Shown: in pieces, positions 22,592 to 28,672 of the stretch | How the letters are laid out: every line of letters begins with the position of its first letter | How positions within the stretch are numbered: the first letter of the stretch is position 1 | Origin: a virus | Taxonomy: Duplodnaviria; Heunggongvirae; Uroviricota; Caudoviricetes | Virus record (IMG/VR): IMGVR_UViG_2879765931_000001 | Reading direction: 5' to 3' (one strand) | Length of the DNA stretch: 30,734 nucleotides | The notes under the pieces: model-generated | Told to the model about the DNA's origin: nothing | The model's database searches: none | The model's input: only the letters and a program-made list of their open reading frames with translations | Translations under genes and position numbers: made by a program

Positions 22592-22849
22592 TCAGCGCAG
22601 CGCCTCCTGCACCAGTTTTTCAAACTTTCCGACTCTGGTTTCCAGCTCTGCCACACAGTCCACCAGCTCATCTACTGCTTTCTGTGCGCGATGCTTCGCC
22701 TGCATCAGTTCCCGAAGCGCGGGTACCATATCTTTACGGATAGCATCTTTTGTTATGCCCGTTTTTTCGAGTTGTTCAGCATGACGCAGCATTTCCTGCG
22801 CGTGTTTACGCAATTGTTCAGGGGTAAAAGTCATTGTCTGGTTGTTCAA
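22592..22849 (-). CDS. Hypothetical small coiled-coil protein (85 aa)
   Basis: ORF between the helicase gene and ninH, overlapping the helicase stop by 4 nt; no family recognised. Confidence 0.5.
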   Translation of the reverse strand: MNNQTMTFTPEQLRKHAQEMLRHAEQLEKTGITKDAIRKDMVPALRELMQAKHRAQKAVDELVDCVAELETRVGKFEKLVQEALR

Positions 22850-24237
22850 AAGAAACGCTCCATCTTACTGCTGTCAGTTCGTTTATTACTGTATCTGCGC
22901 GGATTGCCGGGCTTCATGGGAGTGGAAAGCACCCGTGCACTTTCCTGGTCCACAGGCAGAAAATGTCCGTTATAAAAACGCCGGTAAATCGTTCCCAGAG
23001 AACCGTTACGTTGTTTCGTGATATTGATTTCTGCGATGCCCCTGGCCTGCGTATCCGGGTTGTACACTTCATCCCTGTAAAGCATCAGAATGATGTCTGC
23101 ATCCGCCTCTATTTCTCCGGAATTTTTCAGGTCTGAGTTCATGGGACGTTTATTGGGTCTGGACTCCACACCGCGGGAGAGCTGGCTCAGCGCAATCAAC
23201 GGAAAACCACCGGATTTTGCCAGGCCTTTAAGCCCCTTTGAGATTTCACCCACGGCAAGGTCATGACGCCCCGTGGTTCGGGTTTTTATCAGCCCGAGAT
23301 AATCAACCACCACCAGCGCCGTTTCCGGATATTTAATCAGGTGGTGTTTCGTTGTTGCGCATATCTCATCAATGGCCAGGTTCGCCTGGTCCACCATCCA
23401 GATATTGCGCCCGGTCATCCGCCCCACCCCTTGTGAGAAACGCGTCCAGTCTTCATCTTCAAAGTGAGCCACAGATTTCAGGCGTGATACTGGCATCCCT
23501 CCAGCCGCAGACACCATACGTTCACCAATCTGGATGTTCGCCATCTCCATGGTGAACAGAAGCACACCATGCCCCTGCTCAGTCACCTTGTCGATGATGT
23601 CCAGCGCAAGTTCGGTTTTCCCCATCGAAGGACGGGCGGCAATGAATACCAGGTCTCCGGGCTCCATACCGCCTGTTTTTGCGTCCAGTTCATCAATACC
23701 GGTCATCAACGTCCTGGATTTCTCCAGCCCCTGATTCCGGCATTCAACACGCTCAACCACTTCCGGAAGCACATCATCAATATGTACCGGCTGAATGACG
23801 CCCTTTCCTGTCGACAGTGTGACCATCATGTTCTGCGCATCCTTCAGGGCATCTTCAGCTGCTTCACAGGTATGCGCATCACGTAATTTCTGCAGCGCCT
23901 CATTCAGTGTTTTTTCTGCATCGCGCAGTGCGGCATTGCGCCGCAACGCTGCAACATAGTGCTCCAGTGAAGACTTCACCCAGGTTTTACGCCCGGTATC
24001 AGTAATCACCGGGGCAAGTTCCGGCATCTCATTACACAACAGCACGGGGTCAATCACTCCTGAAACACGGGCCTGTCTGCAGATGCCTGTATAGATATCC
24101 TGATACGCTCGTACAGAAAAAACGTCCGCTGGCAGTGTGGCCAGAATATCCATCACTTCAGGATCTGCTCCGCGCAGAAAGAACGCGCCGATGACAGCGC
24201 CTTCAAGGTCATCGTTACGCCATACTGGAGTTGTCAT
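22846..24237 (-). CDS. Replicative DNA helicase (DnaB family)
   Basis: 463 aa with Walker A (ARPSMGKTELALD) and DnaB-like C-terminal RecA fold motifs (VVVDYLGLI, SQLSRGVESR); overlaps the upstream loader gene by 4 nt. Confidence 0.9.
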   Translation of the reverse strand: MTTPVWRNDDLEGAVIGAFFLRGADPEVMDILATLPADVFSVRAYQDIYTGICRQARVSGVIDPVLLCNEMPELAPVITDTGRKTWVKSSLEHYVAALRRNAALRDAEKTLNEALQKLRDAHTCEAAEDALKDAQNMMVTLSTGKGVIQPVHIDDVLPEVVERVECRNQGLEKSRTLMTGIDELDAKTGGMEPGDLVFIAARPSMGKTELALDIIDKVTEQGHGVLLFTMEMANIQIGERMVSAAGGMPVSRLKSVAHFEDEDWTRFSQGVGRMTGRNIWMVDQANLAIDEICATTKHHLIKYPETALVVVDYLGLIKTRTTGRHDLAVGEISKGLKGLAKSGGFPLIALSQLSRGVESRPNKRPMNSDLKNSGEIEADADIILMLYRDEVYNPDTQARGIAEINITKQRNGSLGTIYRRFYNGHFLPVDQESARVLSTPMKPGNPRRYSNKRTDSSKMERFF

Positions 24238-25121
24238 GCAGCCACACCTCTGATACGAGAACGGTAACTGGGCCAGTTAAACGACAACCAGTTGCGTCCC
24301 CCGTCTGTGATCCTGTCGGCAATTCGGGGACTGATGAACGCCCACAACTCTTCCGGTGAGAGGTTACTGATCAGAATGGTGGGCAAGATACTTTCGTACC
24401 TGGCGTTGATAATTTCCTGCAAAATAGCCATTTCAGCCGCGCTGCCAAACTGAACGCCAACTTCGTCGATGATCAGCAAATCCATTGACGCATAACGCTC
24501 AATAACTTCATCCGCTGTTTTTTCGCTGTCATTCCGCCAGCAATTTTTCACAGCACGGGTAAGGCGCATCACGTCGGTGATCTCCACACTGGCCAGATAG
24601 TTACGGATGATGTGTTTTGCCATAGCCACAGCCAGATGATTTTTTCCGGTACCACAACTGCCGGTCATAACAAGACTGGTACCGTTCTCCAGCATATCTG
24701 GCCAGTTCTCCGCATAGCGGCGACAGGCCGCAAGATTTCTGGCTGCGCCAGGATTAACCTCCAGATAATTATCAAACTCGCAGTCCCGAAAACGCAGGGC
24801 AATTCCGGCGTTATCAGTCAGCTCTTCCGCCTTGATGGACGACAGCTCCATGGTCAAATCGTTGGCCTCAGCGATTAAGCAGTCAGGGCAGCATGAAATT
24901 TCTTCTCTGTCCTCGCCATTACGATCGCTCCACACCAGTATATGCGTGTGATATTCGCCATGTTTTTCGCAATATCCGCGACCTTCACGCATCAGGCAGG
25001 AACGATAAGGCCATGGCTTTTCGCCCTTCTGAGCAAATGCAATCTCTGCCCGTAACTCATCCATTCGCGCCTGTAGTCTTTTTTGTTGTTCACGCAGGTT
25101 AAACGTCATCATCGCTGTCAC
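24234..25121 (-). CDS. DnaC-like helicase loader (IstB-like AAA+ ATPase) with N-terminal Cys/His-rich region
   Basis: 295 aa; Walker A GSCGTGKNHLAVAMA and Walker B LLIIDEVG; the N-terminal CEKHGEYH...CCPDC suggests a zinc-binding segment. Confidence 0.88.
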   Translation of the reverse strand: MTAMMTFNLREQQKRLQARMDELRAEIAFAQKGEKPWPYRSCLMREGRGYCEKHGEYHTHILVWSDRNGEDREEISCCPDCLIAEANDLTMELSSIKAEELTDNAGIALRFRDCEFDNYLEVNPGAARNLAACRRYAENWPDMLENGTSLVMTGSCGTGKNHLAVAMAKHIIRNYLASVEITDVMRLTRAVKNCWRNDSEKTADEVIERYASMDLLIIDEVGVQFGSAAEMAILQEIINARYESILPTILISNLSPEELWAFISPRIADRITDGGRNWLSFNWPSYRSRIRGVAA

Positions 25122-25122
25122 C

Positions 25123-27459: not shown

Positions 27460-27757
27460 ACGCACTCTCCCCACCATGACACACGACGAAATGGCAGCCA
27501 AATGGATGGAAGACCCGGCTTTTAAAGCAGAATACGACGCTATCGCTGACGAATTCGCACTGCTTGATGAAATGCTGGCAGCACGCAAAGAAGCTGGCTT
27601 AACTCAGGCTGAAGTTGCCGAGCGAATGGGAACAAAAGCGACCGCGATCACCAGAATGGAAAGTAATCTCGCATCAGGTATCAGCGGCCCATCATTTGCC
27701 ACACTAAAAAAATTCGCCCGCGCTACTGGAAAAAAACTCCAGATCCGCTTCGTTTAA
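27449..27757 (+). CDS. HTH-XRE family antitoxin (HigA-like)
   Basis: 102 aa; overlaps the toxin stop by 11 nt; HTH segment GLTQAEVAERMGTKATAITRMES; classic toxin-first HigBA-like arrangement. Confidence 0.8.
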   Translation: MTGKRTLPTMTHDEMAAKWMEDPAFKAEYDAIADEFALLDEMLAARKEAGLTQAEVAERMGTKATAITRMESNLASGISGPSFATLKKFARATGKKLQIRFV

Positions 27758-27971
27758 CCACACCGCGCCGTCATTCTGGCGGCGCACCGGATAAATAGTC
27801 ATTTCCTCGCACGATGTCTTAGCCACCGGATATCCCACAGGTGAGCCGTGTAGTTGAAGGTTTTTACGTCAGATTCTTTTGGGATTGGCTTGCGTTTATT
27901 TCTGGAGCGTTTCGTTGGAAGGTATTTGCAGTTTTCGCAGATGATGTCGGTGAAACTTCGTCGATGTCGCC

Positions 27972-28382
27972 TCATTCATACCTCCTGTCGGTAAATCTGA
28001 CACCCTGACCAATAGCCCAGGCTGTTGTGTACTCGATCAGACTTGCCATGCGCTTCACGCTCATCTGCGCGCTGCTTTCGCGAATGTTGACGCATTCTCC
28101 TTCAAGGCCGGGCAAAACATCAGCTTCCTGTTTTGTTGCCACTGCATGACCGCTGATCAACAAAACCTTCCATTGTTCTGGTTTTAACCATTTGCCGCAC
28201 CATTGAACCTGACGAGCGATATCCGCCAGCATCGCGTGAAATTTTGCGTTCTGGTCAAGATTTCGCTTGTAGTCAGTAATGCGGATGGTGACTGGCTTGT
28301 CTTTATCGAGAGGAGTTGAGAGGATGGCATTTATTGCGGCTTGCTGTTGTTGCTTAGTTCGGAGGAAGATTGTTTGCTTCAT
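27972..28382 (-). CDS. ninB: NinB (Orf family recombination mediator)
   Basis: 136 aa; ...[50 protein letters not shown]... matches lambda NinB/Orf. Confidence 0.8.
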
Positions 28383-28672
28383 CGAAAATTCTTCTCTTTA
28401 ATTCCAGCGGCTCTGATAGCTTTCATTACTGCAATTACCGTTTTGTCCTTCCCATCCTCATGCCCCATCGCATAAGCACCTTCTTCACCATCTTTCCAAA
28501 AGTCGTCATTCGATTCGGGCCAGTCGATATCCAGTTCAATAGCTGCTCGCGATGCCTGCCATATCACCCAGGCAAACTCTTTTAATTCATCGTCTCCTGT
28601 GAACTGGCTTTTGTCTTTTGACCACCAGTTTTCAAACTGTCGGTAGCTATCGTTCACTTCCCTCTCCCCCAA
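28379..28672 (-). CDS. Hypothetical acidic 97-aa protein, translationally coupled to ninB
   Basis: ORF overlapping the ninB start by 4 nt; Trp/Asp-rich; no family recognised. Confidence 0.5.
   Translation of the reverse strand: MGEREVNDSYRQFENWWSKDKSQFTGDDELKEFAWVIWQASRAAIELDIDWPESNDDFWKDGEEGAYAMGHEDGKDKTVIAVMKAIRAAGIKEKNFR

Follow-up and report, generated by a model that had tools for sequence, protein, structure and literature searches.

Introduction

The nin region of lambdoid phages is dispensable and tightly packed with ATGA overlaps, and its genes are individually non-essential (PMC10695390, PMC8022706). RgdR is a basic protein of 99 amino acids encoded on a phage-inducible island of enterohemorrhagic Escherichia coli (EHEC), where it binds DNA non-specifically and activates LEE1 (PMC3378721, PMC10877973, PMC6092414). 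An RGD motif has been reported to be important for this activity (PMC3378721). In Gifsy-1 the promoter of the small RNA gene isrK drives a downstream antirepressor-like gene by way of terminator read-through (PMC4825925). Here we compare with these systems three small open reading frames (ORFs) in a stretch of 30,734 nucleotides of Caudoviricetes DNA (IMG/VR record IMGVR_UViG_2879765931_000001; in the following, the window). As first called, these are ORF1 (22592-22849), ORF2 (26018-26251), and ORF3 (28379-28672), all on the minus strand.

Results and Discussion

Three conserved protein-coding genes

A preliminary description of the window, made from the sequence alone, had reported the three ORFs and considered them probably real genes. 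All three are present at these coordinates and on this strand. To this set we added homologous DNA gathered from IMG/VR contigs, phage records, and E. coli genomes, and computed substitution rates by the Nei-Gojobori method. The median ratio of nonsynonymous to synonymous substitution rates (dN/dS) is 0.05 for ORF1 (36 distinct sequences), 0.25 for ORF2 (43), and 0.19 for ORF3 (21), with the variable columns distributed over codon positions 1/2/3 as 16/11/56, 35/37/61, and 23/20/36, respectively. Synonymous changes prevail in all three ORFs, and their Shine-Dalgarno sequences and start codons are kept even where the upstream gene changes. Lack of conservation in related prophages, which would have spoken against them as genes, was looked for, and the ORFs proved to be conserved across dozens of distinct homologous sequences. 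Because purifying selection is accompanied by conserved start sites and conserved synteny, we conclude that the three ORFs are genuine, conserved protein-coding genes of lambda-like phages. The argument first offered for this conclusion, translational coupling to recognized neighbors, carries less weight: the overlaps do exist, but the upstream neighbor of ORF3 is a NinA micro-ORF rather than a standard recognized gene, and tight ATGA packing is the norm in such operons and provides no special evidence for a gene (PMC8022706).

The earlier view that none of the ORFs could be assigned to a family has to be revised. ORF1 matches phrog_2565 (E = 2.7e-32), ORF2 matches phrog_1153 (E = 6.7e-42), and ORF3 matches phrog_343 (E = 4e-29), all of them PHROG families of unknown function. 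The ORFs themselves returned nothing above threshold from Pfam or NCBIfam; PF26207 is a precomputed match in 112 of 118 ORF3 homologues, including proteins that are 99% identical to ORF3, which is assigned to this family by way of these homologues. RefSeq lists ORF1 (WP_001064799), ORF2 (WP_000618005), and a 98% identical form of ORF3 from a related E. coli prophage (WP_001000126, 92 amino acids) under the name "hypothetical protein". Each of the three exact proteins is found on at least 1000 public contigs, always named "hypothetical". Most of these contigs are of Shigella flexneri, M90T among the strains, or of E. coli, and the prevalence of S. flexneri names makes the window a probable cryptic prophage of this species. 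Homologues reach into phages of Salmonella, Hafnia, and Klebsiella. Neither the protein accessions nor PF26207 retrieved any paper from the literature. All three genes are already known in the sense that they belong to catalogued, albeit uncharacterized, and ordinary families.

In our view, the three ORFs probably belong to the ordinary, conserved accessory genes that lambda-like phages carry in their rightward delayed-early operon. Their earlier placement in "early-gene operons" was roughly correct; more precisely, they are delayed-early genes of the rightward (pR) operon and belong to its replication module and nin region.

ORF2 and the replication initiator

ORF2 (26018-26251, minus strand) encodes a protein of 77 amino acids of the phrog_1153 type (SfV orf38/WP_000618005), probably a distant relative of DUF4222 proteins. 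Its match to phrog_1153 extends over the full length of the family (residues 1-74 to profile positions 1-74 of 74), and its phage counterparts are SfV orf38 and an unannotated ORF in phiP27 and ST64B, with identities of 46-80%. The ATG start codon overlaps the stop codon of the upstream Rha gene (ATGA) and is preceded by a strong Shine-Dalgarno sequence, AAGGAGGT. At the other end, ORF2 overlaps the start of the replication initiator gene (taken as ATG 26031) by 14 nucleotides (nt), and the Shine-Dalgarno sequence of the initiator is located within ORF2. In all 78 scorable loci with an ORF2 homologue, the initiator gene follows directly downstream, and at least four unrelated types of gene are found upstream. 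These upstream genes all end in EVRP or EVHP because the Shine-Dalgarno sequence of ORF2 is embedded in their last codons. ORF2 and the replication initiator gene are a fixed two-gene unit, and ORF2 may also be linked functionally to initiation.

Profile comparisons suggest a link between ORF2 and DUF4222 (PF13973). Alignment of 64 ORF2-family sequences with 8 DUF4222 sequences by hhalign gave an E-value of 6.9e-5 over 44 columns, compared to 0.66 for a reversed control. The aligned segment pairs ORF2 residues 19-64 with residues 20-63 of RgdR, which is the whole DUF4222 core. When ORF2 was compared by phmmer with 10,942 local ORFs (E up to 10), the 18 ranks that follow its own family were all occupied by DUF4222 ORFs. 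Scored against the Pfam model, 14 of 28 members of the ORF2 family produce E-values below 0.1 (best 0.0033), none of them at the gathering threshold of 27 bits; RgdR itself scores 82 bits. These matches make it probable, but do not establish, that ORF2 is a divergent protein of the DUF4222 superfamily.

The ORF2 protein (8.8 kDa) has a pI of 10.0, a net charge of +7.8, and a single acidic residue. The AlphaFold model (pLDDT 76) predicts an N-terminal helix followed by a five-stranded SH3/KOW-like barrel. Foldseek searches with this model against PDB and BFVD returned generic KOW, Tudor, SH3, and DUF1653 barrels with E-values of 0.005 or weaker, none of them significant, and a PDB sequence search with ORF2 as single sequence returned nothing. 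Kinship with NusG/Spt5, to which the KOW matches could be taken to point, was not adopted, as these matches concern generic small beta-barrels only. Two database labels were also set aside. The representative of the 90%-identity cluster that contains ORF2 is named "DNA-binding protein"; it is the neighboring initiator without an ORF2 fusion and was not used as evidence. The RefSeq label DUF4222 in O145:H28 does not concern the ORF2 homologue; it belongs to a separate ORF of 59 amino acids further upstream.

Many related phages have a bona fide DUF4222 ORF of 57-60 amino acids (MQVLNRWFRDGRG...) at a distance of 1-2.4 kb upstream of their ORF2 homologue, for example at 1490-1669 in locus L249, 1800-1979 in L250, and 5996-6175 in L252, and in about 25 other loci. 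This ORF overlaps annotated Rha/antirepressor genes (ST64B sb41, SfV orf37) in a different frame. Where this ORF and an ORF2 homologue occur together, the operon may hold a pair of DUF4222-type paralogues, and the annotated start of several Rha genes may have been placed too far upstream.

By analogy with RgdR, the ORF2 protein would bind nucleic acid with low specificity, with which its pI and net charge are consistent. It could serve as a cofactor that is made together with the initiator and that contributes to the function of the origin or replication module or to local transcription. Taken jointly, nucleic acid binding, DUF4222 membership, and a role as initiator cofactor form a plausible proposal, to which we give somewhat less than an even chance. 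To our knowledge, RgdR is the only DUF4222 member that has been studied. A more speculative extension, which we regard as rather unlikely, is that ORF2 and RgdR represent one widespread class of small, basic, SH3-like DUF4222-type cofactors of phage and satellite replication initiators, with a gene that always overlaps and just precedes that of the initiator or primase. The virulence effects of RgdR would then be a by-product of nucleic acid binding. If true, this would provide a mechanistic home for a long-unexplained virulence regulator and add a new accessory component to lambdoid replication modules.

ORF1 downstream of DnaB

ORF1 (22592-22849, minus strand) encodes a small protein of 85 amino acids of the phrog_2565 type (phiP27 L20/WP_001064799). 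The TTG start overlaps the stop codon of the DnaB gene (TTGA), with GGAG located 8 nt upstream. The match to the phrog_2565 profile is confined to positions 121-202 of 204, and ORF1 is the stand-alone form of a domain of about 75 amino acids that is otherwise found at the C-terminus of longer members. These longer forms (170-265 amino acids, with the ORF1 domain at the C-terminus) make up about one third of the family, and some of them also hold a CxxC...CxxC insert. The N-terminal domain of the long forms has no Pfam match, and the fusion was dropped as a clue to function. This small family comprises only 33 clusters at 50% identity (among 1.84 billion representatives), with Lys39, Pro43, and Asp64 as invariant residues. 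Constraint on the ORF1 domain is very strong.

In 83 of 84 loci with close relatives of ORF1, the DnaB gene lies upstream, often with Q abutting. More distant relatives occur in nin-like regions (Hafnia phage yong2, Lys8385Vzw) or in a leftward operon (Shigella phage 75/02 Stx gp10). Since these have no helicase nearby, the ORF1 domain is not tied to the helicase, and a dedicated association with DnaB was rejected. By its position between DnaB and ninH/Q and its TTGA overlap, ORF1 fits the class of lambdoid nin-region genes; no tR2-like terminator was found ahead of it.

Single-sequence searches of PDB with ORF1 matched a C-terminal construct of Ku70 (1jjr, E = 6e-4) and designed helical proteins. 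These matches did not recur with the family profile and were judged to be noise from helical composition. More generally, the weak Pfam and PDB matches of ORF1 all concern helical or coiled-coil proteins and are gone when the family profile is used. That ORF1 is an all-helical module for protein-protein interaction or oligomerization is a possible reading of this composition, although we would not count on it.

ORF3 at the head of the nin region

ORF3 extends from 28379 to 28657 (minus strand) and encodes 92 amino acids of the phrog_343/PF26207 type (933W ST933Wp31, Nil2 ORF29). This start at GTG 28657 replaces the TTG at 28672 (97 amino acids) of the first call because RefSeq annotates 279 nt in a near-identical prophage, GGAGAGGG is located just upstream, and an ATG occupies this codon in at least 12 related loci. 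The protein (10.8 kDa, pI 4.6, net charge -7) contains six tryptophan residues. Its AlphaFold model shows three helices around an acidic, tryptophan-rich loop of low confidence, and PDB contains no sequence match to ORF3, either as single sequence or as family profile.

Upstream of ORF3, we read from the sequence a NinA-type hydrophobic micro-ORF of 25 amino acids (MTIYITELIAGLLVIAGLFIWGRGK; 28654-28731, minus strand), which begins straight after the primase stop codon and shares a GTGA overlap with the ORF3 start. A ninA gene of identical layout, likewise 78 nt long, is part of the annotation of phage Nil2. Embedded in this micro-ORF is a tR2-type intrinsic terminator (28679-28702, minus strand), which consists of an 8-bp stem with 6 GC pairs followed by TTTTTATTT; the hairpin is annotated as the tR2 terminator in Nil2. 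The last base of the stem lies 21 nt upstream of the ORF3 start codon, and the ORF3 stop codon overlaps the start of ninB (ATGA). Among 86 loci, 80 have NinA ahead of ORF3. NinB follows ORF3 in 80 as well: it is the adjacent gene in 19 loci, is located within 1.5 kb in 60, and lies at a greater distance in 1. The replication gene upstream is not constant; it can be lambda-type P/ren, a DnaB analogue, or a toprim primase. With tR2 upstream and an ATGA chain to ninB, ORF3 fits the positional class of lambdoid nin-region genes; it is the first gene after tR2 and the first gene of the nin region.

This position tells the experimenter when ORF3 is expressed. By what is established for lambda, an intact phage would make the protein only after antitermination by N, and plaques should form without the gene, as they do without the remainder of the nin region. 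Should a mode of action be proposed, binding to a protein partner would be the first choice, but it is an unlikely guess.

Neighboring genes and prophage decay

Read from right to left, the window begins with the C-terminal 195 codons of a lambda-type integrase, an insertion sequence (IS) of the IS3 family (IS911, 28924-30172, minus strand, between the int and primase fragments), and the last 68 codons of a toprim primase. These are followed by ninA/tR2, ORF3, ninB (27972-28382, minus strand; Orf recombination mediator, Pfam NinB 2.5e-56; ATGA overlap with ORF3), ninE, a toxin-antitoxin pair on the other strand, isrK and C4, and the Rha-like gene. Next come ORF2, the O-like replication initiator (25123-26031, minus strand; phrog_270, RefSeq "LvrA C-terminal domain-related"), a DnaC-like gene, the DnaB-type replicative helicase (22846-24237, minus strand; Pfam DnaB_C 3e-72; stop overlapping the ORF1 start), ORF1, ninH, and Q. 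Four tRNA genes, a holin gene, and broken head and tail genes complete the order.

The flanks of the IS911 junction are 28732-28938 and 30147-30734. Since IS911 joins the int fragment to the primase fragment, xis, the leftward operon, N, cI, cro, and pR have been deleted. A sister IMG/VR contig (L088/L171), in which the IS abuts position 28799, carries a deletion that is longer by 124 bp. A second, mosaic junction is located at about 27092. To its left lies a phiP27/O121-type module (isrK-C4-Rha-ORF2-O-DnaC-DnaB-ORF1), and to its right the toxin-antitoxin pair and a nin-region start of the 933W/Nil2 kind. This junction is present without the IS in IMG/VR contig 2537561620_000017. It follows from the mosaic junction that the ancestral prophage had two replication modules, one with toprim primase and one with O/DnaC/DnaB. 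Decay is also evident in the late region (3577-20902), where the major head protein (18689-19423 and 17619-18176) and the tape measure (12440-14347 and 11578-12408) are each split and the central tail fiber J is truncated (6465-9203). Among 10 large ORFs scanned, none matched terminase, portal, or endolysin PHROG families.

The Rha/antirepressor-like gene (26248-26811, minus strand; Pfam Phage_pRha), whose stop overlaps the ORF2 start, was aligned to an intact copy in E. coli O121 (99.8% identical DNA). This comparison revealed an in-frame change of CAG to TAG at 26760-26758, and because of this nonsense codon the gene is a pseudogene here. Its true start is likely ATG 26811, which would make the premature stop codon 18. 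A RefSeq coding sequence of 286 amino acids in related genomes ("Rha family") has a longer N-terminus, the first 99 codons of which cross the isrK and C4 RNA genes and are probably spurious. Both RNA genes were identified by Rfam matches at gathering score: the Hfq-binding small RNA isrK at 26978-27054 (minus strand, 58 bits) and the C4 antisense RNA at 26866-26953 (minus strand, 75 bits). In the E. coli O121 prophage, copies of an approximately 70-nt segment from the 5' end of isrK (L002 11782-11849 and 12439-12509; 95-97% identical to window 27025-27096) precede successive ash-family genes, which suggests a repeated small-RNA leader cassette. The initiator gene contains four iteron-like 12-bp repeats (TAxTCTCTGxxG, 25533-25577) that encode a repeated ENTTE motif; by analogy with lambda O, this array is probably the replication origin. 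The toxin-antitoxin pair between ninE and the isrK/Rha cassette (about 27130-27757, plus strand) consists of a Gp49/HigB-like toxin (PF05973, 3e-25) and an HTH_3 antitoxin (27449-27757).

The operons of the window lack pR, N, and the immunity region. The only candidate promoter that we saw upstream of the block from ORF2 to ORF1 is a putative isrK promoter at 27061-27089 (minus strand; TTGATT, 17 nt, TACACT; read by eye), which stops 6 nt short of the isrK 5' end. Transcription of ORF2 and ORF1 would have to start at this promoter and read through the isrK terminator. The IS911 transposase genes point in the same direction as ORF3-ninB-ninE, which would be reachable only by read-through from IS911, and the resulting transcript would meet tR2 without N. 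In this window, the three ORFs would be carried along passively by a prophage in an advanced state of decay, probably one of Shigella flexneri.

Alternative explanations

Several observations weigh against ORF2 as a DUF4222-type initiator cofactor and against the mechanisms considered for its companions. ORF2 itself scores 14.8 bits (E = 0.021) with the Pfam DUF4222 model and does not meet the gathering threshold of 27 bits, and SfV orf38 and the ST64B homologue of ORF2 give no DUF4222 match. Direct BLASTP of ORF2 against RgdR returned nothing, as did a shallower profile comparison with RgdR alone. The hhalign probability for the match between the ORF2 and DUF4222 profiles, both shallow, is only 63%. 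In the alignment, R20-G21-D22 of RgdR correspond to V19-G20-Q21 of ORF2, where the glycine alone is kept and the RGD motif is absent. Linkage alone could account for the adjacency of ORF2 and the initiator. The ORF3 model is of low confidence (pLDDT 66), and Foldseek found no fold match for it. As all three families are uncharacterized, every mechanistic step is inferential.

The preliminary description had pointed to host takeover or anti-defense, and at least one of the ORFs could be such an effector, for example the acidic ORF3 as an inhibitor of a nuclease or restriction enzyme, or ORF1 as an inhibitor of a host factor. ORF3 is indeed small and acidic (net charge -7) and sits beside a Lar-like restriction-alleviation gene in 933W, the nin region and the gap between DnaB and Q are accessory, mosaic regions where such genes accumulate, and the very strong constraint on ORF1 suggests a specific partner. 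On the other hand, none of the three ORFs resembles a known anti-restriction or anti-defense family in Pfam, NCBIfam, or PDB, by sequence or by fold. PADLOC gave nothing for ORF2 and ORF3, and for ORF1 only coiled-coil noise at E = 0.003 or weaker. No paper cites these proteins by accession. The family, structure, and literature searches, which did not include a dedicated library of anti-defense hidden Markov models, yielded no support, and narrow, slowly evolving families with dN/dS of 0.05-0.25 differ from the fast evolution usual for counter-defense genes. We consider an effector of this kind improbable.

For ORF2, the overlap with the initiator start, the initiator Shine-Dalgarno sequence inside the ORF, and the invariance of the unit would also be expected if it were mainly a translational leader that opens or couples the initiator ribosome-binding site and encodes a peptide of little function. 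This explanation is quite improbable in view of the purifying selection on the ORF2 protein, with many residues invariant across members that are 74-100% identical, the retention of length and pattern in homologues at 46-50% identity, and the compact fold predicted for it. A further alternative is host domestication, in which ORF2 or another of the ORFs now regulates chromosomal or virulence-plasmid genes of Shigella, as RgdR does in EHEC (PMC3378721). The three ORFs are intact while the genes for head, tape measure, tail fiber J, Rha, primase, and int are broken, and the putative isrK promoter survives upstream of ORF2. Yet ORFs of 234-279 nt are small targets that may have survived by chance, their sequences are nearly identical to the copies in functional phages and show no sign of host-specific adaptation, and the Rha gene just upstream has been inactivated; domestication appears very improbable. 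Finally, short ORFs, two of them (ORF1 and ORF3) with non-ATG starts, could be chance open frames rather than genes. The strong excess of synonymous changes already refutes this idea, and conserved Shine-Dalgarno sequences and starts, strong PHROG matches, and homologues in phages of Salmonella, Hafnia, and Klebsiella leave it a practically negligible chance. Ordinary accessory genes of the delayed-early operon thus remain our preferred interpretation of the three ORFs.

As it stands, this finding matters little: conserved "hypothetical" genes such as these three are numerous in lambda-like and Shiga-toxin phages, and thousands of genomes already carry annotated copies identical to the ORFs. 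The one modestly useful result is the link of phrog_1153 (ORF2) to DUF4222/RgdR and its fixed place before replication initiator genes. This association is only a mildly new lead, and it supplies a hypothesis that can be tested for a family of which only one member has been studied.

Comparison with known systems

Like the nin genes of lambda and P22 (ninA to ninI), which lie between the replication genes and Q, behind tR2, and in ATGA chains, the window contains ninA, ninB, ninE, and ninH in this region. Unlike these genes, ORF1 and ORF3 are not homologous to any named nin gene, and Pfam offers no NinX-type family for them. ORF3 is 96% identical to ST933Wp31 of 933W (NP_049491) over 91 of 92 residues and, like this protein and Nil2 ORF29, is encoded directly after NinA/tR2 at the head of the nin region. 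Between this gene and ninB, 933W and Nil2 have one to three additional genes (e.g., a Lar-like gene), whereas ORF3 of the window overlaps ninB. The replication gene upstream also differs, with lambda-type P and ren in 933W, a DnaB analogue in Nil2, and a toprim primase in the window.

ORF1 is 93% identical to L20 of phiP27 (NP_543072), and both follow directly after a DnaB-type helicase and ahead of Q; in the window, ninH is placed between ORF1 and Q. L20 is annotated from an internal ATG (80 amino acids), whereas RefSeq starts ORF1 at the TTG (85 amino acids). ORF2 is 46% identical to SfV orf38 (NP_599070), which likewise overlaps a Rha/antirepressor-like gene upstream and a replication gene downstream. 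The SfV initiator resembles that of the window in its C-terminal half only, and orf38 differs from ORF2 in giving no DUF4222 signal, even below threshold.

The phenotype of RgdR (ECs1581 of EHEC O157), namely activation of LEE and the type III secretion system and repression of motility, belongs to RgdR and is not implied for ORF2, which has an extra N-terminal helix and lacks the basic C-terminal tail of RgdR. Both proteins are small and very basic, with a pI of 10.1 for RgdR and 10.0 for ORF2. The RgdR gene overlaps the island primase gene ECs1582 by 4 nt, and ORF2 likewise overlaps the initiator gene just downstream.

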